Shown here: in pieces, positions 2,843-27,146 of the stretch
Numbering within the stretch: the first letter of the stretch is position 1
Layout: the number at the start of each line of letters is the position of its first letter
IMG/VR virus record: IMGVR_UViG_3300028384_001275
Span: 32,001 to 96,000 of that record
Length of the DNA stretch: 64,000 bases
Direction: 5' to 3' (one strand)
Origin: a virus
The notes under the pieces: model-generated
The model's input: the letters and a program-made list of their open reading frames with translations, nothing else
The model's database searches: none
What the model was told of the DNA's origin: nothing
Program-made: the position numbers and the translations under genes

Positions 2843-3652
2843 ATGTCACAGATTAAAGTATCTTCAATTAGGGATCTTACTGACGCTGCTGGTTTTACTC
2901 TGGCATCTGGTAAGATTATTACTGTAGGCACACTGACAGTTTCTAATATCACTATTAATGGTGATATTTTTGGTGGGTCTTCCTATATTATTCCTGAGCA
3001 ATCTGGTAACGCTGGTAAACTCCTGAGATCTACAGGTAGTGGTCTTGAGTGGGCTGAAGGTGCTGGGGCTGCTGGTATTAGATCCATGCAAGTGTGGACA
3101 TCTAATGGCACCTGGACACGCCCCACTGGTGTTAAATCTATTATTGTAACAGTTGTTGGTGCTGGTGGAGGTGGATCTGGTCACTGTGAATCTGGCGGTG
3201 CTGGTGGTATGGCTGAGCGTGTAGTTGATGTTACTAATGTTTCATCAGTTTCGGTAACCGTAGGTAATCCTGGTGGAGGCACTAATTACTCTGGTTGTGG
3301 TGGAAACGGAGGTACAACATCTTTCGGGTCCTATTGCTCAGCATCTGGCGGATATGGTGCTAACTGCCGCACACAACATGCTGGAGGTATCGGCGGCAAC
3401 GGATCTGGTGGTAGTGTTAATGTATACGGTGGTGGTGGTAATGGTCATGGATCTCACTATTCCTACGGAAATAATGTAGGGGGTAAGTCTTACATGGGTG
3501 GTTCTCAAGCATCGTCACATAGTCAGAATAACTATGCACATAGACACCAAAATCATTGTGCTTGGGGTGCTGGTGGCAACGGTGCTAAGCATGGTAACCG
3601 TGGTGCTAGAGGACGCGAAGGTGTAGTTGTCGTCCAAGAATTTTTCGGTTGA
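2843..3652 (+). CDS. glycine-rich virion/fibre protein, paralogue 2 of 3
   Basis: 269 aa, colinear with paralogue 1; CTAAATA at 2820-2826. Confidence 0.75.
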   Translation: MSQIKVSSIRDLTDAAGFTLASGKIITVGTLTVSNITINGDIFGGSSYIIPEQSGNAGKLLRSTGSGLEWAEGAGAAGIRSMQVWTSNGTWTRPTGVKSIIVTVVGAGGGGSGHCESGGAGGMAERVVDVTNVSSVSVTVGNPGGGTNYSGCGGNGGTTSFGSYCSASGGYGANCRTQHAGGIGGNGSGGSVNVYGGGGNGHGSHYSYGNNVGGKSYMGGSQASSHSQNNYAHRHQNHCAWGAGGNGAKHGNRGARGREGVVVVQEFFG

Positions 3653-3678: not shown

Positions 3679-4488
3679 ATGAGTGTACTCAAAGTAAGTC
3701 AAGTCAGAGACGTTGCTGGTATTGGTGGATTCAACCTTTCTAGTGGGTCGATTACTTCTGTGGGCACACTTAAAGTGAATAATATTGTTATTAATGGCAA
3801 TATTTCTGGATCTTCAAACTATGTGGTCCCTTCACAATCTGGTCAGTCAGGTAAATATCTGACTACCAATGGATCAACTTTGAGCTGGGGGGAAGTATCC
3901 CAAACATCTGGATTTAGATCTATGCAGGTGTGGACATCTAATGGCACTTGGAATAAACCATCAGGTGTCAAGTCTATTAGAGTGCAGGTAGTTGGTGCTG
4001 GTGGAGGTGGATCGGGTTATTGTGAATCGGGTGGTGCTGGTGGTATGTCTGAACGTGTGATTGATGTTACTAATGTTTCATCGGTCAGTGTCACTATAGG
4101 TAATCCTGGTGGAGGCACTAATTACTCTGGTTGTGGTGGAAATGGTAACACAAGTAGTTTTGGTAGTTATTGCTCAGCATCTGGTGGATATGGTGCTAAT
4201 TGTCGTCAACAACATGCTGGCGGTATTGGTGGCAACGGATCAGGTGGCACTTTGAATGTGTATGGTGGTGGTGGCAATGGTCACGGATCTAACCACTCTT
4301 ATGGTAACTATAGTGCTGGCATGTCTTATATGGGTGGATCACAACCTGGATCCCATAGACAACAAAATTATGCCCACAGACATCAAAACCACGCTGCGTG
4401 GGGTGCTGGTGGCAACGGGGCTAGAAACTCAAACCGTGGTGCCCGTGGTCGCGAAGGTGTCGTAGTTGTATTTGAATACTACGGTTGA
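3679..4488 (+). CDS. glycine-rich virion/fibre protein, paralogue 3 of 3
   Basis: 269 aa, colinear with paralogues 1 and 2; ATAAATA at 3652-3658. Confidence 0.75.
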   Translation: MSVLKVSQVRDVAGIGGFNLSSGSITSVGTLKVNNIVINGNISGSSNYVVPSQSGQSGKYLTTNGSTLSWGEVSQTSGFRSMQVWTSNGTWNKPSGVKSIRVQVVGAGGGGSGYCESGGAGGMSERVIDVTNVSSVSVTIGNPGGGTNYSGCGGNGNTSSFGSYCSASGGYGANCRQQHAGGIGGNGSGGTLNVYGGGGNGHGSNHSYGNYSAGMSYMGGSQPGSHRQQNYAHRHQNHAAWGAGGNGARNSNRGARGREGVVVVFEYYG

Positions 4489-14364: not shown

Positions 14365-14911
14365 TAAACCTATAGTTATTGATAATTACTTTCCAGATTG
14401 GTTAGTTGATCATGTTGGAGATTATTTTGCTGGTTATCCTGTAACCTTTACAAATTCTCCAACTGCTGTATATGAAAATGCCAAATTCTTTGGCAATATG
14501 ATAATGACTGACGATCAATGGACTGTGCCTGAAGATATTCAGTCTTGGTTTATTGAATACTTTAATAACTGCATTTATTTTGATATTTGTAAGAATGATA
14601 ACATCACACATTGTCATCGCATTCTATTAAATGGGCAGGTGAAAGGTCAAAAATCACAGAATCACTGTGATTCAGATTATGATTGTTATTTGAGTGTGAT
14701 TTATCATGCTTCAGGCACATCTGGAAGCACAGTGTTTGTGAATGATTCTGATGAGGATGTGCAAGAGGTAGAGTTTAAGCCTGGGCGCATGATTCTCTTC
14801 AATTCTACACTCTGGCATCGTGGAGATCCACCAGTTGATGATAACTATCGTGTGAGTCTTGGTTGTGTTTATCCCATGGTGCCCATTCAGGATCTTCCCC
14901 ACCCCGTGTGA
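14354..14911 (+). CDS. 2OG-Fe(II) oxygenase
   Basis: VIDNYF, HCD, G.T.F, V.FKPGR.ILFNS...H.G.PP...R.SL. Confidence 0.8.
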   Translation: MKYDKPIVIDNYFPDWLVDHVGDYFAGYPVTFTNSPTAVYENAKFFGNMIMTDDQWTVPEDIQSWFIEYFNNCIYFDICKNDNITHCHRILLNGQVKGQKSQNHCDSDYDCYLSVIYHASGTSGSTVFVNDSDEDVQEVEFKPGRMILFNSTLWHRGDPPVDDNYRVSLGCVYPMVPIQDLPHPV

Positions 14912-14977
14912 CGGTCGGCAAGGTGCCCACTAATCTGGCACAGCACCTCTAAAGCATGTATATTAAAAGAGTCAAAG
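14907..14977 (+). promoter_or_regulatory. repeated early-type element, copy 1
   Basis: TGTGACGG-N8-GTGCCCAC, 28 nt, then TATATT within TGTATATTAAAAGAGTCAAAG. Confidence 0.75.
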
Positions 14978-17650: not shown

Positions 17651-18889
17651 ATGATCACCCTTCGTCCCCATCAGTCCCGTGCTCTCGCAGCAATGAGCGC
17701 CGCTGATCACGGTCAGGTTATTGTGCCAACTGGTGGCGGCAAGACTATCATCATGATTGAGCACGCTAAGCAACAACTAGAGCAAAAACCTTCCACCATT
17801 GTTGTTGTCGCTCCGCGCATTCTCCTCGCTAATCAACTCAGCACGGAGTTTATGCAAACAATCAGCGCAACATGGACGCATGTTTGCCATGCTCACAGTG
17901 GCGAAACGCATTACTTTAGCTCTACCAAGAGTGACAAAATTGCACTCTTCAATGATACTGCACGGGCAGCAGGTGAGTCCTGCATCATCTTCACTACCTA
18001 CCACAGTTTGCGTCGTGTTGTTGATAGTGGCATCGACGTTGATGCTATCTATTTTGATGAAGCACACAATGCTTGCACTAAACACTTCTTTGTAAGTGTT
18101 GCTGCTATGAGTATGATTGCAGACAAAAAGTATTTCTTCACTGCAACACCTCGCGTCAGCAATAAGCATGACCGTGGTATGAATAACCGTGAGATCTTCG
18201 GTCCCGTTATTGAGAATGTCCCTGCCCCTGAGTTAATTCAAGGCGGTCACATTCTTCCCCCTACGATTGTCCCTTTCGAGACAGATCACACCGTTGATAA
18301 GAAGAATCCACACCTTGTGCATAGCAACACTGTGCAGGATATTATTGACAATCTCGATGAGACTGACGCTGCAAAAGTGTTGGTAGCTGTGCCATCTTCC
18401 CGTGTGCTGGGTAACATTCTGGGTCACACAGATCTCTTGTCTGAGTTGTCTGATCGTGGATATGATGTCCTCCACGTTACATCTAAGTTTGGCGCATATG
18501 TCAACAAACAGAAAGTTTCCCGTGAAACATTCTTCGACACGTTGACAGCATGGGGCAAAGATTCTGATCGTAAATTTGTACTCTTCCACTACAGCATTCT
18601 GTCGGAAGGTATCAACGTCCCTGGTCTCACTCATTGCATCATGCTCCGTAATCTTAACGTGGTTGAGATGGCACAAACGATCGGACGTGTTATCCGTCTC
18701 GATCCTACTGACGCTGCTAAATTGCAGTCGGGTGAGTTACAGCCTCAGCAGTGGGGTTTCTATAACAAACCCACAGGATTTGTGACTGTCCCAGTTCATC
18801 GTAACTACGGCAAAGCAGTTATTAAGCGTTTGCAGCGTATCACGGATGAAATTTTTGTAAAGGGAGTGCCTGCCACTGCATTAGTCTAA
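17651..18889 (+). CDS. superfamily 2 (DExH) helicase
   Basis: LRPHQ, PTGGGKT (Walker A), FDEAH, TATP, LSEGINVP, QTIGRVIR. Confidence 0.9.
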   Translation: MITLRPHQSRALAAMSAADHGQVIVPTGGGKTIIMIEHAKQQLEQKPSTIVVVAPRILLANQLSTEFMQTISATWTHVCHAHSGETHYFSSTKSDKIALFNDTARAAGESCIIFTTYHSLRRVVDSGIDVDAIYFDEAHNACTKHFFVSVAAMSMIADKKYFFTATPRVSNKHDRGMNNREIFGPVIENVPAPELIQGGHILPPTIVPFETDHTVDKKNPHLVHSNTVQDIIDNLDETDAAKVLVAVPSSRVLGNILGHTDLLSELSDRGYDVLHVTSKFGAYVNKQKVSRETFFDTLTAWGKDSDRKFVLFHYSILSEGINVPGLTHCIMLRNLNVVEMAQTIGRVIRLDPTDAAKLQSGELQPQQWGFYNKPTGFVTVPVHRNYGKAVIKRLQRITDEIFVKGVPATALV

Positions 18890-18997: not shown

Positions 18998-19348
18998 ATG
19001 CGTAAGATCGAATCTCAAATGTGTGCCGCAGTCCAGAAAAACATTGACTGGCAATCTGGTAACACTTCTGTTCACTTTGATCCTGAAACTGGCGTCTCTG
19101 TTGTGCGTCTTCATGGCAACAAGATCGCTGAGGTTTCTGATAACGACATGACAATTTTTGATGGTGGTTGGCAGACTACTACCACTAAATCACGTCTGAA
19201 TGCACTTTGCCAAGAATTTTGCATTGCTGGTGAAGGTGTTTTCCAGAAAAACTATCAGTGGTTTGTGCGTAAGTTTGTTGCAGAATCTCCCATCACTGGT
19301 AAAGTTTATAACGTAGAAGATTTTGAGAATGGTTTCATCTTTGCCTGA
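18998..19348 (+). CDS. conserved cyanophage hypothetical protein
   Basis: MRKIE..M..A.....W.SGNT...LHGNKIA...DGGWQT.TTKSRLNAL...FQKN..WF. Confidence 0.75.
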   Translation: MRKIESQMCAAVQKNIDWQSGNTSVHFDPETGVSVVRLHGNKIAEVSDNDMTIFDGGWQTTTTKSRLNALCQEFCIAGEGVFQKNYQWFVRKFVAESPITGKVYNVEDFENGFIFA

Positions 19349-19350
19349 TT

Positions 19351-19539
19351 ATGTTTGCAACACTTTCTAAGAAAAGATCCAAATCTAATCTCATCACAAT
19401 TCACATGAAATTCCTTCTTCTCGTTATCATCGGTGTCCTGATCTACAATAGCAACGACACTCGATTTTTTATCTCAGATCAATTAAACAATGCTGCTGAG
19501 ATTGTCCGCCCCGATCCTAACATTCAAATTCGTTTCTGA
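19351..19539 (+). CDS. small membrane hypothetical protein
   Basis: Hydrophobic stretch MKFLLLVIIGVLIY. Confidence 0.5.
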   Translation: MFATLSKKRSKSNLITIHMKFLLLVIIGVLIYNSNDTRFFISDQLNNAAEIVRPDPNIQIRF

Positions 19540-19574
19540 TCTGCTATAATTACTAACAAAGCTAATTAACAACA

Positions 19575-20207
19575 ATGTCTGACAATCTTTCACCTAATCT
19601 ATCTGATTCAATCACACAGGAAACTTATGCTCTCTTCCCAACTCCTGTCACTAGATATCATCTCCGTAACCACGATGATATAAAGAAACAAATCCTAGAT
19701 TGGATGAAAGAGCAACAAATCCTCCCACAAAATCCTAGACAAGCAATCTGCCATAACGTCGCACAAATTGGTCCTAATAATGCACCAACTAACGACATTC
19801 CTGACTTAACTAAATCCCTCCTCCAAGCAGTTGACTTTCATAATGCTAACGCATCTGCTTACCAATCTAACTTCCAAATCTCAGATTCTTACCTAGAGTT
19901 AGCTAATGAAGGTGCAATCTATGCTCCTCACGAACATTCAAACTGCATCTATTCCCTCACCTATTTCATTAACTTTCAAGACTCAACTCAACACTCTTTC
20001 CTTAAATTTAGAAAAAATGTTGCATCTAATCATTACCCAATCCTTCAATTAGATTCTGATACCCCAACAGCATATAATCTCACAGAAGCAACATTTAACA
20101 TGGAAGAAGGTGATGTTATCATCTATCCATCAAATCTTACTCATGGTTTTGACTCTAACCCACAACAAGATAGAATTACCCTAACCGCTAACATCATCAC
20201 TGCCTAA
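19575..20207 (+). CDS. 2OG-Fe(II) oxygenase (TIGR02466-like, HxH type)
   Basis: LFPTPV, PHEHSN...S..Y, EGD.II.PS.L.HG...N....RITL.AN. Confidence 0.85.
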   Translation: MSDNLSPNLSDSITQETYALFPTPVTRYHLRNHDDIKKQILDWMKEQQILPQNPRQAICHNVAQIGPNNAPTNDIPDLTKSLLQAVDFHNANASAYQSNFQISDSYLELANEGAIYAPHEHSNCIYSLTYFINFQDSTQHSFLKFRKNVASNHYPILQLDSDTPTAYNLTEATFNMEEGDVIIYPSNLTHGFDSNPQQDRITLTANIITA

Positions 20208-20217
20208 ACTAACAACA

Positions 20218-20400
20218 ATGCCCCAAAGACTTCAACTCCTACTTGACCTCTATGATCAACAAACTCTCCCCCCTGATCAACAAATAGAAATGGCACAGTT
20301 TCTAATAGATACGGGACTAAATGAAACCCTCTTACAATATCAACAACTATGCGACTATTTCATCATTGAAGGACTATGTTATGATGTCCAATATACATGA
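20218..20400 (+). CDS. small hypothetical protein
   Basis: 60 aa; shares the CTAA(A/T)(C/T)TAACAACAATG-type leader with the gene at 19575. Confidence 0.55.
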   Translation: MPQRLQLLLDLYDQQTLPPDQQIEMAQFLIDTGLNETLLQYQQLCDYFIIEGLCYDVQYT

Positions 20401-20410
20401 CTAAACTAAC

Positions 20411-20446
20411 AGTTTTCCACAACTATCCGCGTTTCTGTGGAAAACT
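20411..20446. repeat. inverted pair of DnaA-box-like 9-mers
   Basis: AGTTTTCCACA-N14-TGTGGAAAACT, a perfect 11-bp inverted repeat in intergenic DNA. Confidence 0.75.
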
Positions 20447-20571
20447 AAAAAGCATTAAATAAATATAGGTTGGTGTTTTATATGCCCTCCTAAATAGGTC
20501 CACAAATAGTTACCTCGGACTGTAACACATCGACTCTGAGTTTGTCAACTATTCTCGGAGACTAACACAAA

Positions 20572-20613
20572 CTGCCCACAGTGCTTGACAATGCCCACCA
20601 AATCTGCAACAAT
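20572..20613 (+). promoter_or_regulatory. sigma70-type promoter with a degenerate copy of the early element
   Basis: CTGCCCAC, then TTGACA (20585-20590), 17 nt, AACAAT (20608-20613); same 28-nt half-site to -10 distance. Confidence 0.5.
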
Positions 20614-20656
20614 ACATACATCAACTCAAGGAGGAGTTTCTAACATCAACTGACTT

Positions 20657-20845
20657 ATGGGAAGGACTTACAAACGCAACGACCTGCACAATAGCAGACG
20701 ACCCAAATCTATCAGAGAAAAACGACAGTTTAGCTCTGGTAAAAAGAGATCTCTTGATGATGACTTTTCCACAGACTTTTCCACAGGAAAGTATCAACAA
20801 AAGAATCAACGTATTGATGACACTAACTGGCAGGACAATCAATGA
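20657..20845 (+). CDS. small basic hypothetical protein
   Basis: MGRTYKRND...RRPKSIREKR; contains a tandem GACTTTTCCACA repeat. Confidence 0.6.
   Translation: MGRTYKRNDLHNSRRPKSIREKRQFSSGKKRSLDDDFSTDFSTGKYQQKNQRIDDTNWQDNQ
20762..20785 (+). repeat. tandem 12-bp repeat containing two TTTTCCACA boxes
   Basis: GACTTTTCCACA occurs twice in tandem. Confidence 0.8.
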
Positions 20846-20961
20846 ATGACATCCTTAACGAAGATTGGATCGATTCTCTACTACAAGAGGACGAATCCTT
20901 AGACATTGATGACTCTATCCCTACAGAGTTTGATGAAGACCTCCGAGGTGATTGGACATGA
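20842..20961 (+). CDS. very acidic 39-aa peptide (not in ORF track)
   Basis: ATGA overlaps at both ends; MNDILNEDWIDSLLQEDESLDIDDSIPTEFDEDLRGDWT. Confidence 0.55.
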   Translation: MNDILNEDWIDSLLQEDESLDIDDSIPTEFDEDLRGDWT

Positions 20962-21122
20962 AAACTATTCAACTCCCCACACATCCCCCAGTAAATATCA
21001 AGATCTGGGACAAACATAACAAACACTTTTGGCAATACGATTACGACGGTTGTCCTAAGTATGGTCCCTTCAAATCCTCTCAGCAGGCTATCGCTGACGC
21101 AGAGGTATATTCAAGGGGTTGA
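20958..21122 (+). CDS. small hypothetical protein (54 aa; not in ORF track)
   Basis: ATGA overlap; ...GCPKYGPFKSSQQAIADA... Confidence 0.6.
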   Translation: MKTIQLPTHPPVNIKIWDKHNKHFWQYDYDGCPKYGPFKSSQQAIADAEVYSRG

Positions 21123-21413
21123 CAACACTCTGGGGACAGTTATTCTGTCCCTGTTTGTATCATCCGCGAAGCGGGTATATTAAAAACGCCTACTTCCCTA
21201 ACCTACAAAAGTATCTCAGCGACCTCGATATATTAATCAAATGAAATTGCGGGTCCCCCCTACACAAAAAAATTTTCCAGGGTATAATTCCTCCTGGGAG
21301 GTCTCTACAAAGACGACCTTTCGGGAGGAATTCTTATATATTATAGAATGCGCCGTAGAGACCTCTAGGATCGCCTGTAGCGCCCTTCTAAGTAAGTTTA
21401 CGAGGTAATCATC
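21123..21413. other. palindrome-rich non-coding region; candidate replication origin or structured RNA
   Basis: GGGACAG/CTGTCCC, CCGC-GAA-GCGG, AATTCCTCC/GGAGGAATT and GAGGTCTCTAC/GTAGAGACCTC; sits at the skew switch. Confidence 0.55.
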
Positions 21414-21917
21414 ATGACTAAGAGAGATCAAGAGTTTATGTCTTTACAGGAGGAGTATGCAGATCTGTTAGGGCATGTATGGAAGGGGAATAAGATGTAT
21501 GGATGTTATGAGATTATTCGGAAGTATTACAAGTGGAAGTATGATTATGAGATGATTGACTTCAATGGTAGGAGGAAGTTAACGTTATTTACTGAGGATG
21601 CGATTAAGGAGCAAGGAGGTAAGTGGGTATATCGCTCAGAGTGGGGAGATAGTGAGATTGATTTATCAGAGCTACAGCAAGATGATGTCCTAGTGTTTAG
21701 ATTGTATACCACTGCACTGGACGGATCATATAGCGTAAGCAGTAGGCATAATCTTCCAAATCATGGTGGTGTGTATCTAGGCAATGGATTTATGTTGCAT
21801 CATCCATATAAGCATCATTCAATGATTGTTGATTTACAAAATGAAACTAACTCAGTTTATCTAATGTCATGTGTAGGAGCGTTAAGGTCTGGTGAAAACC
21901 TGGACAATGCTACATAA
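21414..21917 (+). CDS. NlpC/P60 family peptidase (tail assembly K-like)
   Basis: GCYEIIR.YY (catalytic Cys), D.L.F, NHGGVYLGNG.MLHH. Confidence 0.8.
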   Translation: MTKRDQEFMSLQEEYADLLGHVWKGNKMYGCYEIIRKYYKWKYDYEMIDFNGRRKLTLFTEDAIKEQGGKWVYRSEWGDSEIDLSELQQDDVLVFRLYTTALDGSYSVSSRHNLPNHGGVYLGNGFMLHHPYKHHSMIVDLQNETNSVYLMSCVGALRSGENLDNAT

Positions 21918-21939
21918 AAGTAATAAGGCGTATAGGGTT

Positions 21940-22107
21940 ATGAGTAAAAGGTATGTACTAGAAGTGCAAGAGGATGAGTATGGTGATGTATTTGTGACAC
22001 TACCTGATGAGTTACTTGAGGAAGCTGGTTGGGATGTTGGTGATGTGTTAGAGTATGAGGAAGATATTGATGGTAGTGTAATACTACATAAAATTATTGA
22101 AGAGTAA
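21940..22107 (+). CDS. AbrB/MazE/SpoVT-like small DNA-binding protein
   Basis: V.LPDELLEEAGW.VGD.LE......G.V.L.K swapped-hairpin pattern. Confidence 0.65.
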   Translation: MSKRYVLEVQEDEYGDVFVTLPDELLEEAGWDVGDVLEYEEDIDGSVILHKIIEE

Positions 22108-22137
22108 AAAAATCGCGAAAAACCGCGTTTTAAGATT

Positions 22138-22392
22138 ATGAGTGAAAAAAATCCGATCCTGCAATTTGAAAGCGACGAAGAATATTTGAAGTGGGCGCTA
22201 GAGACGTTATCTAAGGCGGTGGAAAATTTATCTCGACGGCAAGCAATTATTGAGCAAGCGATTCAGAAGATGCCACCACCTGGTCCTGATATGATTCAAT
22301 ATAAGATTCCAGGTGATGATGACTATAGTAATATCAAAGTCATTTTAGATAATGTGTTTAAGCGTCTAAATAAATTGGAAACAGAATCTTAA
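22138..22392 (+). CDS. hypothetical protein
   Basis: 84 aa, helical. Confidence 0.6.
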   Translation: MSEKNPILQFESDEEYLKWALETLSKAVENLSRRQAIIEQAIQKMPPPGPDMIQYKIPGDDDYSNIKVILDNVFKRLNKLETES

Positions 22393-22398
22393 TACATA

Positions 22399-25300
22399 AT
22401 GGTTGCTTTTTTGCAGGAGACAGGTAGAAGTTTTCCGAATCCGATCAGCTCGGAGCAATACACTCGTCCATTTAAGCGACCATCATCAAGTAAGTATGAG
22501 TCTCATGATAAGTATCCCAATATTGGGACAGGGACTGATTACTATATTCAATTTGAGAAAGGTGGTCCTGGGTCTAAACCCCTAGGATCTGATACTGTAC
22601 ATTATTTGGGTGATACTCCTAAGATTGATGTGCGGTTTGATTCTAGTGGTAATATTGTAGTTGCGGGTGGCACATGTGATTTAGGACTCACACTACAATG
22701 GGATGATAATACAGGGACTGCTGGCACAACAGGTGCAGACGTATCAGCATCAATTAATGGATCAACAATTAGTGTATCACATGGTAGTGGTGAAAAAGGA
22801 AGTGATAGATCTAATTTAGTTTCTAACGTCGGACCTGGCACATACTCAACCAGTATTAGTAGTAATTACGGTAGGAGTATACGGGACGATCAGATTTGTT
22901 TTTATGATGATGATGGTAATGATTGTAATGCCACATTATCAATACGGGTGCAGAATCAAGAGCCAACACCAAATGCTCTTAGTTATGCAACCCATCCTAA
23001 TTTTGAGCGGCAAGCAATTTATCGTTTCTTCCGTGGTGCAAAGAATGATCACAAGTATAGTGATCTTGCTGGCATGTCTCGCGAAGACTTTGGTTGTGAG
23101 AATGAAGATTGGAGTGGAGTTGCGCGAGGGTATAACAAAGAGCCGCGTGATGGCAGACCTTCATTCTACCTGATGAATAAAGAGGTAACAGGCAGTAGTC
23201 CAATCAAACTATATTATTCATATTGGCCAGATAACACAGTATTACACTTTGGTAGCGGAAACCCATCGGGCATTACAGTTGGATGTGGTAGAAACAAATA
23301 CAAATATGTAAAGACCATTGGATATGGTTTTGCAACAGAATCTGCTGCGGGTGATTTCAAGGGATCTGCAGAGAATGCAGTGCCTTTATATCATTATCGC
23401 AAAGGTGTATATCAAAATGGACAGCAGGGAAAAGATATCGATGATTTATATACGATCGATCCCGCAAGTGAAGTTAACCTGAGTGGCGGTCCTATTGCTC
23501 CTAAGGATGCCCTGAGCGGAGAATATGTGTATCAGGGTATCTTGTGTTATATTTTTGCGTCAGATGTTGTAGATGCACCTACGATCGAATATGTTGAGGG
23601 CACTGCAATCGGACCCACAGGTCAATGTGTAGATAAAACTGACTGGTATGACTATGGAATTGAAGGTAGCGGATATGGCGATGATGAATATCGCAGATTT
23701 GATCCAGCCTCATATGCAAACTATGTGGCTGAGAGTGAGAATAGTAAAGGATATGCACCAACCACTCCTGGCACTGCGCTCTGGAATAGTGATAATGTAA
23801 CTATTCAAAATGAAGATGCACACTTCGAGTGGTTTTACGGATTGAATGGCGCAGTCAAAGCAGCACTTCCTCGTTATCTTGGATTTGAGGATGCATACGA
23901 TTCTCAGTTTATGTTTTATCTGTATGACACATCATACCCATGGAATGGTCCGATCTATGGAATCCAATATACATTGAATGATGTGCCATGTTGTCCCAAT
24001 ACAACTATTCCTGGACAAGGAGAAGATGATGATGAGCCTGGATGTGTTCCTCATGAATCATACCATTCACATTTTTATGAAATCAAACGAGACGCTTGGG
24101 AAACAACCAAGACACGTCTAAAGATCAATGATGGTAAAGAAGATGTCAATGCAAACTTTACTGAAATTGATACACTAAGTCCAAGAATTTTATTTCGTTA
24201 TACAAGTAGAGATGGTGATTGGAATCGTGGTGATACTATTAATGGATGGTTTGTTAACGCAGTTTTCTATTATGGAGATGAGTTGAAAGTTGGTGTTATG
24301 CACCTTAGTGGCAATGGTAATGATTTCACTTATAACTCGGCATATACATCTACAGACGGTGGTGCTATTCGCGTATTGGCAGGATATGGTATTCCTAACA
24401 AAGCTGCATTTGCTGGCGTCTATGAATTTCCAAAGAAGATTTCATATTGGAAGGTTGAGATTTCACCCAATGCATTGATTCCGAATCGCACACTTGATGA
24501 AGCGGTACTAAAAGCATATGTTAATAAGAAGGGTGAAGTCAGTGAAATTGAAATTATCAATTCTGGTAGAGGATATGAAAACCCTCTGATTAAAGTTATC
24601 AACCCAGGTCTACTGGAAGATTTTAATGCTAACGATACTGCAAAAATTATCAAAGCAAAAGTTGGCATGAATGCCGACTTTGAAAAAGCTATTGAAAATC
24701 CAAATGTCACTTTTTCATCAAGAGATATTGGAAAAGATAGTCATGAGGTATTTGGTATCAAGACAGGACAGTTTAGACCAAAGAATAAAAACAAAAGTCC
24801 TTATGTTTCTAAGGAAGCAGTCATTGAAGTAACTAAACTTACAGATGAGGGTGGTATTGATAGTGTCCGCATTATTGATGGTGGATCAGGATATAGTAGT
24901 GATGAAATTCCTGATGTGTTGGTAGCAGATCCTGAGTATATCAAATATGATTCACCTCCCCAACCAGGCAAACAAAAAAATAGATTTAATAAGTCTCTAG
25001 AATCTATGGGTGCTCATATGGCAGCATCATGGTCTGAAGTGCAAAACTTGAATTCACTTGCAACATCAAACAAATCGGGTAAGACTAACAAAAAAGAAAG
25101 TGGTCTATTAGATACCAGCACTGAATATACTCAGTCTTCTGTAAACTTTATCAGAGATGGTATTAGTGTAGAGATACCAGATTCTTACATTAGAGTGCCT
25201 CAAGAAGAGATTAGTGAAGACGAATTGCACATGTGCTTTGACTTGCCTGCAACATGTATTAAAGTTGATGCAAGAACAAACCTTAGTAAGGCATTACCCA

Positions 25301-26613
25301 AACAGGATCAATTTTCAGAAGTTAGTAAATTTAGCACTGGAATTTCAGAATTTGAAAAAGAAGCCATGCCCTATGTTGCTAGGGCAGGAGACTCGGTAGA
25401 TGCACATGGTGAAAATATGTCACACCTCTATGCGCCCTTCGGAAAAGATCGGTGTATTAAGATGGGACAACCTAAGCTTTATAATATTCAAAGATGGTTT
25501 GAGATGCCTTGTCCCTATTTGGCACAGAAGCAAGGGGGAGATGAAAACCTCGGTGAAGGTGTATCAAAGAAGAAAAGGAAGAATAGAAAATATGGAAATA
25601 AGCAAAGAGCATATGGATATCTTCCATATCAATATTGTGCATCTAAGGAAGAGAGTGCATCCTTCACAGTATCCATGGAATTTGAAGGTCGGACTATTGG
25701 ATCTCAGGGCGAAGCATTTATGAATTATCTAAACAGAATGCCCAAACCAAAACTTGCTCCTGTAAGAAAAGTTACTAATGGTAAGAAAACATGGAATTGT
25801 AATGATGGTGATGTTGAGGGTAGATGCTATCACAATGATGACGGTGATGTTGTATTTGTTGCTATCGGGGGAGATGAAAATACCTATGACTATAACAGCA
25901 TCGATGGGTATAGTGAGTATGATCAATTTCAAACTTGGTTACAAGACAACCTAACATCACAGCTAACTCCCACAAGTGCTTATTGGACATTTACAACCAC
26001 AACCACTACTCCTGGATCAGGTGTAGAAGGAGATCCAGATTATGTCCCCCCTGTTACTACCACTACTACCGACAATGAAGATGGTGTAGACTTTAATTAC
26101 CCATATACAGCGTTTAGTGTAGATTGCTCTACACCATATCCAGCGCATGAGTGTTGGGATACTTATGCTGGATCTAATGGACCCCTAAATGTCTATTGCG
26201 GATACGATAGAAATGGCACGGGCATACCTGGAAAACGGTGGTGGGAAATTACAGCATTTAATAGGACAAATCCATTTTGTACATCTTGCCCTCCTGTAGT
26301 TTATGGATCTGCATATGCATTCTTCAATATGAATCAGGGGTCAGGAGCTAGTGTCGGATTGACATATGTGAATGATGCATCTATTGCAATCAATCCACAA
26401 AGAATGACAGAAGATGATGAGTTAAATAATAAGAAAAGAATGGTGCTTGGTCCTTACGACGGAAAGGTTACTATTCGCAACTGGTTGACTGGTGGCACTA
26501 TTGCTCTAGGTAGATCCATTAACAATTTTGGCAATCCATTCTTTGATGAATGCTCTCAGCCAGATGAGGGTAGTGCATGGACAGATGGTCAAACAATTAA
26601 TGAGGAGTTTTAA
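22399..26613 (+). CDS. large virion structural protein (tail/baseplate associated)
   Basis: 1404 aa; CTAAATA at 22366-22372; I.I.N.G.GY repeats shared with the baseplate proteins; lies upstream of the PAAR and gp25 genes. Confidence 0.65.
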   Translation: MVAFLQETGRSFPNPISSEQYTRPFKRPSSSKYESHDKYPNIGTGTDYYIQFEKGGPGSKPLGSDTVHYLGDTPKIDVRFDSSGNIVVAGGTCDLGLTLQWDDNTGTAGTTGADVSASINGSTISVSHGSGEKGSDRSNLVSNVGPGTYSTSISSNYGRSIRDDQICFYDDDGNDCNATLSIRVQNQEPTPNALSYATHPNFERQAIYRFFRGAKNDHKYSDLAGMSREDFGCENEDWSGVARGYNKEPRDGRPSFYLMNKEVTGSSPIKLYYSYWPDNTVLHFGSGNPSGITVGCGRNKYKYVKTIGYGFATESAAGDFKGSAENAVPLYHYRKGVYQNGQQGKDIDDLYTIDPASEVNLSGGPIAPKDALSGEYVYQGILCYIFASDVVDAPTIEYVEGTAIGPTGQCVDKTDWYDYGIEGSGYGDDEYRRFDPASYANYVAESENSKGYAPTTPGTALWNSDNVTIQNEDAHFEWFYGLNGAVKAALPRYLGFEDAYDSQFMFYLYDTSYPWNGPIYGIQYTLNDVPCCPNTTIPGQGEDDDEPGCVPHESYHSHFYEIKRDAWETTKTRLKINDGKEDVNANFTEIDTLSPRILFRYTSRDGDWNRGDTINGWFVNAVFYYGDELKVGVMHLSGNGNDFTYNSAYTSTDGGAIRVLAGYGIPNKAAFAGVYEFPKKISYWKVEISPNALIPNRTLDEAVLKAYVNKKGEVSEIEIINSGRGYENPLIKVINPGLLEDFNANDTAKIIKAKVGMNADFEKAIENPNVTFSSRDIGKDSHEVFGIKTGQFRPKNKNKSPYVSKEAVIEVTKLTDEGGIDSVRIIDGGSGYSSDEIPDVLVADPEYIKYDSPPQPGKQKNRFNKSLESMGAHMAASWSEVQNLNSLATSNKSGKTNKKESGLLDTSTEYTQSSVNFIRDGISVEIPDSYIRVPQEEISEDELHMCFDLPATCIKVDARTNLSKALPKQDQFSEVSKFSTGISEFEKEAMPYVARAGDSVDAHGENMSHLYAPFGKDRCIKMGQPKLYNIQRWFEMPCPYLAQKQGGDENLGEGVSKKKRKNRKYGNKQRAYGYLPYQYCASKEESASFTVSMEFEGRTIGSQGEAFMNYLNRMPKPKLAPVRKVTNGKKTWNCNDGDVEGRCYHNDDGDVVFVAIGGDENTYDYNSIDGYSEYDQFQTWLQDNLTSQLTPTSAYWTFTTTTTTPGSGVEGDPDYVPPVTTTTTDNEDGVDFNYPYTAFSVDCSTPYPAHECWDTYAGSNGPLNVYCGYDRNGTGIPGKRWWEITAFNRTNPFCTSCPPVVYGSAYAFFNMNQGSGASVGLTYVNDASIAINPQRMTEDDELNNKKRMVLGPYDGKVTIRNWLTGGTIALGRSINNFGNPFFDECSQPDEGSAWTDGQTINEEF

Positions 26614-26615
26614 TC

Positions 26616-27146
26616 ATGGCATTTGGATTTCTTAAACCAGTATCATCTTTGAATGGATTGCCTTGCTCAGGGCATGGACTGTGCCTACCCTCTACTATCC
26701 ACTCAGTGCAGGCATGTGGCACTCCTGCAATTCCATATCCAATATTGATTAAAAATTTCACATGTTGGTGGCCACCTCTCCCAATGGTGCCAACATTTCC
26801 TGTAACTCCTGAGCGAGCCACAGTTCTTGTGAATCGAGTGCCAGTTAGTGTAATGGGAGATACGTTTTCTTTGCACCCATCTACTTGCACAAATATTGTT
26901 GTCCATATATGTCCATGTGGCAAATCAATGTGTGCTATACCATCGCCAGTCCCCTGCAGTGCCTTAACGATTGAAGATGGTGGTGTTGGGCATGTGAGAG
27001 TTGTAGTTGCAACTAGCTTAACAGTTTTTGCATTCAAACGACCCATTGCTAGGATGCTAGACCCTCTTGGTGTTGGATTTCCTGGATTTTCACTGCCTTG
27101 CTCATCTACAGTTGCGTTTGGGCACCCGACTGTGCTATCATCATAG
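26616..27146 (+). CDS. PAAR-like spike-tip protein (T4 gp5.4-like)
   Basis: C.GHG...PP...TVLVN..PV...GD....H...H.....S.TVF....PIAR..D...C...VA.G..TVL. Confidence 0.7.
   Translation: MAFGFLKPVSSLNGLPCSGHGLCLPSTIHSVQACGTPAIPYPILIKNFTCWWPPLPMVPTFPVTPERATVLVNRVPVSVMGDTFSLHPSTCTNIVVHICPCGKSMCAIPSPVPCSALTIEDGGVGHVRVVVATSLTVFAFKRPIARMLDPLGVGFPGFSLPCSSTVAFGHPTVLSS

Follow-up and report, generated by a model that had tools for sequence, protein, structure and literature searches.

A sharp inversion of GC skew, from C-rich to G-rich on an unchanged coding strand, lies between positions 19351 and 22392 of a stretch of 64,000 nucleotides of viral DNA ("the window"; bases 32,001-96,000 of the IMG/VR record IMGVR_UViG_3300028384_001275, with all positions below counted from the first base of the window). 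The record is a single virus contig of 104,523 bases from a T4-like cyanomyovirus; its DNA matches marine Synechococcus and Prochlorococcus myoviruses, with the best partial match in S-WAM1 (Kyanoviridae). We found that the flip is real, extreme, and local, and that it represents a bias of local gene blocks rather than a record of which strand was copied by a replication fork. Our preferred explanation, held tentatively and with somewhat less than even confidence, is that the flip marks the junction of two oppositely biased gene blocks on the same strand, which flank a conserved control hub containing DnaA boxes.

Two gene blocks on one strand carry the lowest and the highest GC skew of the contig

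The genes on both sides of the flip are as follows, given with their GC skews and silent-site residuals (z).

19351..20400, + strand: G-poor (C-rich) block of three genes, o62, the 2OG oxygenase, and o60
19351-19539, + strand: o62, small membrane-type protein; skew -0.34; silent-site residual z = -3.0
19575-20207, + strand: 2-oxoglutarate (2OG)-Fe(II) oxygenase, Pfam PF13759; skew about -0.43; silent-site residual z = -6.1
20218-20400, + strand: o60; skew -0.33; silent-site residual z = -3.7
20657..21122, + strand: o62b, o39, and o56, small overlapping genes with near-neutral skews of -0.05, +0.04, and -0.15
21414..22392, + strand: C-poor (G-rich, purine-rich) block of three genes, o167, the AbrB/MazE-type gene, and o84
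21414-21917, + strand: o167, weak NlpC/P60 likeness; skew +0.38; silent-site residual z = +5.2
21937-22107, + strand: AbrB/MazE-type protein, Pfam match; skew about +0.68; silent-site residual z = +4.0
22138-22392, + strand: o84; skew +0.19; silent-site residual z = +2.8

Along the whole contig, GC skew in 1-kb windows has a mean of +0.06 and a standard deviation (sd) of 0.088. Both extremes are found at the flip: the lowest value of the contig falls at 19501-20500 (-0.39, about 5 sd), and the highest, 2 kb away, falls at 21501-22500 (+0.32, about 3 sd). The skew is -0.30 over 19560-21100, -0.12 in the non-coding gap at 21123-21413 (IG-B), and +0.45 over 21400-22110. A preliminary description of this DNA had reported a strongly C-rich and a strongly G-rich stretch, with all genes on one strand and with the switch located in a palindromic gap. 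The base counts that it gave are exact (18 C and 7 G at 19801-19860; 20 G and 2 C at 21481-21540), the gap does contain inverted repeats together with a local minimum of the cumulative skew, and the coding strand indeed stays the same across the flip. The C-rich stretch that it placed at 19.56-21.1 kb is right in sign but not in strength, given that strong C-richness is confined to about 19.4-20.6 kb and that the DNA at 20.66-21.4 kb is near neutral (-0.05 to -0.15).

All credible genes of the region are located on the + strand (o62, the 2OG oxygenase, o60, o62b, o39, o56, o167, the AbrB/MazE-type gene, o84, and the gene of a 1,404-residue protein), including the open reading frames (ORFs) that have family support, namely, Kyano_Gp96, the 2OG-Fe(II) oxygenase, the MazE/AbrB-type fold, and the weak NlpC/P60 match. 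The - strand of the flip region shows nothing beyond short ORFs of 30-73 amino acids. On the right side, the onset of G-richness is abrupt (21,401-21,500) and coincides with the start codon of o167 (21,414), while the non-coding DNA beside the G-rich genes is not itself G-rich, neither in IG-B nor in a 30-bp spacer with a skew of 0.00. On the left side, the bias reaches non-coding DNA, with 7 C and 2 G at 19540-19574 and a skew of -0.24 in the gap between o60 and o62b (IG-A). Szybalski's rule holds that the mRNA-synonymous strand is purine-rich. The right block conforms to such purine loading (purine fraction of the coding strand, 0.58-0.63), and the left block does not (0.42-0.48).

Protein composition and codon choice both contribute to the bias

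The skew expected from each protein was obtained by redrawing the codons of its gene from the contig's own codon usage while the protein was held fixed. For the 2OG oxygenase, this gives an expected skew of -0.24, compared with -0.44 observed; for o167, the values are +0.18 and +0.38, and for the AbrB-type gene, they are +0.41 and +0.67, with the expected skew of the other contig genes averaging +0.07 (sd 0.09). Thus, protein make-up accounts for about one-third to two-thirds of the shift in each gene, and codon choice accounts for the remainder. An explanation by amino acid composition, which the preliminary description had listed among the findings that would refute its reading, therefore covers part of the flip, but the silent sites are biased too: the silent-site residuals of the 2OG gene, o167, and the AbrB-type gene are among the largest of the contig.

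The direction of the silent bias is seen at four-fold degenerate sites, where the 2OG gene has 0 G and 16 C at 87 sites and the left block as a whole has G at only 2 of 134. The three right-block genes have 25 G and 6 C at such sites (23% G, 5% C), compared with 1446 G and 2301 C in the background, and they are also rich in A (about 40%; background, 27%) and poor in T (about 30%; background, 47%). Two-fold codons follow the same pattern, with 14% of the left-block K/E/Q codons ending in G versus 45% in the background (p = 5e-6) and 14% of the right-block two-fold codons ending in C versus 32% (p = 2e-4). Taken together, G is the base that the left block avoids on its coding strand; in the right block, which is rich in purines, that base is C. 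As a separate observation, A-richness at four-fold sites forms a domain wider than the G-rich block: over 21414-27146, across o167, the AbrB-type gene, o84, the gene of the 1,404-residue protein, and o176, about 40% of these sites are A, compared with 27% in the rest of the contig.

The flip does not carry a replication-fork signature

Cumulative G minus C climbs almost steadily along the contig, since nearly all of its genes are on one strand, and dips by about 270 counts to a local minimum at 21,294. Once the trend is removed, there is no extremum at the flip in this (incomplete) contig, in the complete genome of S-WAM1, or in the complete genome of a second relative (G004); in all three, the detrended extremes are located 5-12 kb and more from the flip.

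We then consider the base changes themselves. Changes in this lineage were roughly polarized by letting the consensus of the orthologues represent the ancestor, and other lineages served as controls. The closest 2OG protein found, P0002, shares 70% identity, and a viral scan with P0002 as the query returned nothing closer. At left-block sites on which the orthologues agree, we counted 14 changes from G to C and 0 from C to G, with G to A (10) and A to G (9) being balanced. No such asymmetry appears in the four control lineages. Silent sites in the right block gain A and lose T, contrary to the gain of G and T that is expected from deamination.

The preliminary description had interpreted the C-to-G switch as the classical mark of a bidirectional origin, to be checked against the cumulative skew. 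This interpretation is supported in part, in that an origin-like element does exist between the blocks (see below), but the skew does not behave as a replication signature: the cumulative skew has a local dip that disappears as an extremum upon detrending, the range is about 1 kb per side with no extremum at the scale of a replichore, and the base spectrum is unlike that of cytosine deamination. Because of this locality, the missing detrended extremum, the onset at a start codon, the share contributed by the proteins, and the non-deamination spectrum, the flip is not a signature of fork direction. A literature search found no paper mapping a replication origin in T4-like cyanophages.

A conserved DnaA-box hub is located between the two blocks

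The hub and the boxes next to it comprise the following elements.

20401..20656: conserved non-coding hub IG-A, with a DnaA-box inverted pair, an AT-rich tract, and promoter-like sequences
20413-20421 (+ strand) and 20436-20444 (- strand): DnaA-box inverted pair, exact TTTTCCACA, in the gap after o60
about 20445-20480: AT-rich tract, directly after the box pair
20470-20496: weak promoter-like pair, from a promoter scan
20548-20543, - strand: backward-facing TTGACA with a TG-extended TACAGT at 20524-20519 (N18 spacing), facing the AT-rich tract
20585-20613, + strand: forward TTGACA-N17-AACAAT, from a promoter scan
20765-20773 and 20777-20785: tandem DnaA boxes, exact TTTTCCACA, within the coding sequence of o62b

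The 9-mer TTTTCCACA is the cyanobacterial DnaA box (PMC4674748). It is present in five copies in the 64-kb window, compared with 1.07 expected, and four of these are located within 373 bp, forming the only DnaA-box cluster of the contig. The A+T content is 78% in the 40 bp that directly follow the box pair. Inspection of the AT-rich tract by eye against the layout in PMC8287927, with no formal search run, revealed no clear DnaA-trio periodicity.

An alignment of 19 diverse cyanomyovirus loci shows that the hub is conserved as a composite of box pair, short AT-rich tract, weak promoter-like pair, backward-TTGACA segment, and forward promoter. In this alignment, the forward promoter is strong and TTGACA-N17-TACAAT-like, and the backward TTGACA (-35) is nearly invariant, with a poorly conserved -10. 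At least 120 viral contigs contain the inverted box pair, and gp96 is located within about 2 kb of it in about 45 of 80 fetched viral loci. Among complete or near-complete genomes, five have one DnaA-box cluster each (G004, G005, G006, G007, and S-WAM1), and in two others an exact cluster was not found. Many phyla are among the matches listed in a scan of bacterial genomes for the box pair, which is therefore not informative on hosts.

The two boxes inside o62b lie in protein-coding DNA, and in the orthologues that have F-S-T at the box site, these residues are spelled TTT TCC ACA in 9 of 9 cases. This invariant spelling points to a constraint on the DNA itself. The o62b family as a whole (20657-20845; related loci L008-L011, L024, L033, L128, and L158) has a near-invariant basic N-terminus, MGRTYKRND...RPKSIREKR, and a variable acidic tail, and the boxes are located in this tail, as F-S-T with codons that are always identical.

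Judging from these sequence features, we predict that host DnaA docks at the hub, and we consider the hub the leading candidate for a site at which replication starts early or for a DnaA-sensing promoter region. It is a fair candidate origin, of which the skew would be at most an indirect local correlate. As for the origin that had been suggested near the switch, an origin-like DnaA-box element does exist between the blocks, but it is located 0.6-1 kb to the left of the gap in which the origin had been placed.

The flip in related loci has the same sign but is weak

Across 63 non-redundant hub loci, the skew of the right flank exceeds that of the left flank in 51 (means, -0.05 left and +0.06 right), compared with 46% at control anchors within these loci. 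Averaged over the remaining hub loci, the profile runs from -0.06 at 300-900 bp to the left through zero at the box pair to a peak of +0.13 about 1.2 kb to the right, and their + strand is purine-rich on both sides. Comparison with orthologous loci thus supports the sign of the flip, and also the family biases described below, but not its strength: elsewhere the flip is weak, with 2OG skews as small as -0.02, and this genome is the extreme case.

The bias is visible at the level of gene families, with mean skews of -0.23 for o62, about +0.25 for o167, +0.25 for the AbrB type, and +0.13 for o84; all four families hold their sign with or without an exact box pair nearby. Hub-linked 2OG orthologues range from -0.02 to -0.43. 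A G-poor o60 is peculiar to this genome, in which the gene adjoins the left side of the hub (-0.33 versus -0.04 to +0.21 elsewhere). The 800 bp upstream of the hub belong to the lowest 0.3% of genome skew in this contig, in S-WAM1, and in G004, the last of which has no 2OG gene at its hub. A further locus, L158 (IMG/VR contig 3300010370_000117), carries a 2OG oxygenase 61% identical to the one described here, with a skew of -0.39 (third positions, -0.67), adjoining an exact DnaA-box pair.

Possible explanations of the flip

The explanation that we favor starts from the observations that the left block (o62, the 2OG oxygenase, and o60) avoids G and the right block (o167, the AbrB-type gene, and o84) avoids C, with the same gene families carrying the same sign in relatives and this lineage having taken the bias to an extreme. 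The hub between them, with its host-type DnaA boxes, AT-rich tract, and back-to-back promoter-like sequences, would be the docking place for host DnaA, and the bias of its flanks would reflect a strand-specific pressure on the cassettes that disfavors C on whichever strand is read outward from the hub. Selection might exert such a pressure, or transcription or unwinding that begins at the hub might do so through local mutation; genome-scale replication asymmetry would not be its source. For the silent-site bias in particular, both hub-linked selection on strand composition and a composition that travels with the cassettes are candidate causes.

Several observations weigh against this explanation. 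The hub-upstream stretch reaches a mere 8th-9th percentile of genome skew in G005 and G006, and three loci in which an exact box pair lies beside the 2OG gene show little skew (L010, -0.07; L011, -0.11; L128, -0.02). The gp96 gene, located to the left of the hub in 39 loci and to the right in 28, has the same skew in both positions (0.02 and 0.04), which argues against a general position effect. At the silent sites of other loci, G/(G+C) is 0.33-0.36 on the left versus 0.43-0.45 on the right; this difference is mild and kilobases long, and as such fits the border between accessory genes and a structural module. Finally, gene identity and hub side are confounded for most families, such that a bias that travels with the gene and a bias that is set by position are not cleanly separable.

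A possible, if rather unlikely, alternative is that the composition is intrinsic to the cassettes and nothing else is involved. Mobile accessory cassettes with their own histories, amino acids, and codon usage would then have come to lie side by side by chance, where the accessory region borders on the baseplate module, and the hub would be irrelevant. This alternative would account for the family bias being kept with or without an exact box pair nearby, for G-richness that begins at the o167 start codon and is missing from the adjoining non-coding DNA, for the lack of a side effect on gp96, and for bias amplitudes that differ widely among orthologues. It also suits the region, in which small genes, with repeated promoter elements between them, form a hyperplastic array. 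However, it would leave to coincidence that the contig's only DnaA-box cluster has both the lowest and the highest skew of the contig within about 1 kb of it and that two complete relatives have their genome-wide minimum beside the hub, one of them (G004) without a 2OG gene there. Nor does it sit easily with a left bias that enters non-coding DNA (19540-19574 and IG-A), with o60 being G-poor only here, against the left side of the hub, or with the lack of a near-identical donor: apart from gp96, the search for a recent acquisition found no DNA match above about 80% in phage records.

We regard it as unlikely that the hub is an R-loop origin with selected flanks. Under this hypothesis, the promoters of the hub would point outward, and both outward transcripts, antisense on the left and sense on the right, would be G-rich and C-poor; they could consequently pair stably with the DNA as RNA-DNA hybrids or leave the displaced strands free of structure, priming or loading the phage replisome, while host DnaA would help to open the adjoining AT-rich tract. 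In line with this, C is scarce on the outward-reading strand of either flank, the backward TTGACA is nearly invariant and is followed here by the TG-extended TACAGT 18 nt downstream and then by the AT-rich tract and the boxes, and the exchange of G for C in the left block (14 versus 0) resembles selection on strand composition at constant G+C. Moreover, the G clusters of IG-B, the densest of the contig, are located just before the G-rich block, and in T4, oriF and oriG use promoter-derived R-loops and oriE needs an early promoter (PMC3016281). On the other hand, the backward -10 is poorly conserved elsewhere, the backward transcript could be terminated by a hairpin formed by the box pair itself, the other hub loci are purine-rich on the + strand on both sides, G-richness on the right starts about 800 bp from the forward promoter of the hub and exactly at a start codon, and gp96 shows no side effect. 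It is tempting to extend this hypothesis and to speculate that the hub is an early origin of the Kyanoviridae, at which host DnaA opens the AT-rich tract beside back-to-back promoters and whose flanks were selected to keep the outward-reading strands C-poor, for stable hybrids or for unstructured displaced strands in helicase loading. The skew flip would then be a readable origin signature without a change of coding strand, a proposal that we consider doubtful.

A classical bidirectional origin at 21123-21413, with cytosine deamination on exposed lagging-strand templates producing the C-to-G switch, is highly improbable. In its favor are the expected sign of the switch, the bias at four-fold sites, the proximity of a DnaA-box cluster, and the shift in two-fold codons (G to A in the left block, C to T in the right block). 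Against it, the flip extends for only about 1 kb to either side with no replichore-scale extremum in the contig or the complete relatives, the right-block four-fold sites gain A and lose T, opposite to deamination, the loss of G on the left is a change to C (14 versus 0) with G to A balanced (10 versus 9), and replication in T4 is mostly recombination dependent, so that fork direction is not fixed (PMC3016281).

Three further candidates were dropped. A late promoter as the boundary of the flip was rejected because TATAAATA has no copy near the region. Rho-dependent termination behind a C-rich, G-poor transcript was set aside since, to our knowledge, cyanobacteria lack Rho. Early versus late expression was discarded as the cause of the flip because early-type promoter-like sequences precede both blocks.

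The second gap and the gene neighborhood

The gap in front of the G-rich genes contains the following features.

21123..21413: non-coding gap IG-B, with the local minimum of the cumulative skew at 21,294
21119-21124: TTGACA at the start of IG-B
21131-21153 and 21164-21174: two hairpins
21176 and 21229 (TATATT) and 21283 (TATAAT): -10-like hexamers, about 53 bp apart
21286-21365: interleaved inverted repeats
21402-21405: ribosome-binding site before o167

On the basis of these elements, IG-B is read as a multi-promoter leader of the G-rich genes that lacks the marks of an origin. Its first TATATT is part of a repeated promoter element with other copies at 14959, 15794, and 17622. The leader upstream of o167, about 130 bases that make up the first part of IG-B, is conserved in four related loci (L008, L009, L013, and L044); within the window, this conserved leader (21176-21300) contains CTAACCTACAAAAGTAT and a GGGTCCCCCC run, with its three -10-like hexamers about 53 bp apart. 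IG-B also has the contig's densest runs of three or more G (10 per 500 bp). An Rfam scan of 18.8-22.6 kb, IG-B leader included, yielded no credible RNA family, and a scan of the contig for G-quadruplex motifs found none in either block. The only four-run G-quadruplex-like motif of the contig is located at about 14870-14905 on the - strand.

The hub marks the boundary between the accessory genes, which are of early type, and the baseplate module. To the left of the flip is an accessory-gene array with several 2OG-Fe(II) oxygenases, a JmjC protein, a tryptophan halogenase, and a DNA methylase, followed by two genes that lead up to the G-poor block.

17651-18889: UvsW-type helicase, between the accessory array and gp96
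18998-19348, + strand: family protein Gp96 (Kyano_Gp96), family match

Within this region, the promoter-like element TATATTAAAAGAGTCAAAG is repeated at 14959, 15794, and 17622 (+ strand), each time with a stem-loop in front, and precedes successive small gene cassettes and uvsW; we take these repeats to resemble the promoter-plus-stem-loop cassettes of T4-type phages. Farther to the left, three tandem ORFs of exactly 269 residues each (2014-2823, 2843-3652, and 3679-4488, + strand) have high GC skews of +0.14 to +0.25. They are probably tandem paralogues, the first of which matches the glycine-rich domain PF21722. To the right of the flip is the baseplate module, with gp6-, gp8-, and gp9/10-like proteins and a single ORF of 6,965 residues (30729-51626, + strand) that is flanked by the gp6-like and gp8-like genes.

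Significance and relation to known systems

T4-like cyanophages rank among the most abundant marine viruses. Should the hub be an origin, a skew flip that is brief, intense, and next to host-type DnaA boxes would allow it to be recognized from sequence alone, and a T4-type phage would be borrowing the initiator of its host. If it is not, the flip is a caution that a textbook origin-like skew switch can stem locally from the composition of gene blocks, and that silent sites, the genome-scale cumulative skew, and the base spectrum need to be checked before a skew switch is read as an origin.

In bacterial chromosomes, GC skew switches at the origin, a replication-linked strand asymmetry familiar from Lobry-type analyses. 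The flip described here is similar in that the top strand turns from C-rich to G-rich and that the change is visible at silent codon positions, but its amplitude is several-fold larger, its range is about 1 kb rather than a whole replichore, and it is partly bounded by genes and lacks an enrichment of G and T. A second comparison is with R-loop-forming regions, which are GC-skewed downstream of promoters, and with the RNA II primer of ColE1. Shared features are a G-rich, C-poor non-template strand past promoters and G clusters ahead of a G-dense stretch; unlike in these systems, the left flank would require a putative antisense transcript, and the hybrids are only proposed.

The origins of T4 are promoter based, with R-loops at oriF and oriG and an early-mode promoter at oriE, and several of them are located at shifts in compositional bias (Kreuzer and Brister 2010, PMC3016281); the product of uvsW unwinds the origin R-loops (PMC3016281). 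The present locus is likewise that of a T4-type phage, with promoter-like sequences beside an AT-rich tract at a bias shift and with uvsW 1.5 kb upstream. The bias shifts of T4, however, coincide with a switch of the transcribed strand that does not occur here, and the T4 review gives no motif common to the origins and makes no mention of DnaA boxes (PMC3016281).

The phage hub differs from the cyanobacterial oriC in having only two to four boxes, an AT-rich tract of about 36 bp, and no DnaA-trio run recognized by eye; in addition, the phage lacks a replichore-scale skew switch and encodes its own replisome. What the hub has in common with oriC, where the boxes are clustered next to dnaN (PMC4674748), is the exact 9-mer TTTTCCACA, which in many cases has a G after it and is arranged both head to head and in tandem. 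Comparable arrangements are seen in a cyanobacterial contig (L230), which has an oriC-like array of seven TTTTCCACA boxes within 130 bp.

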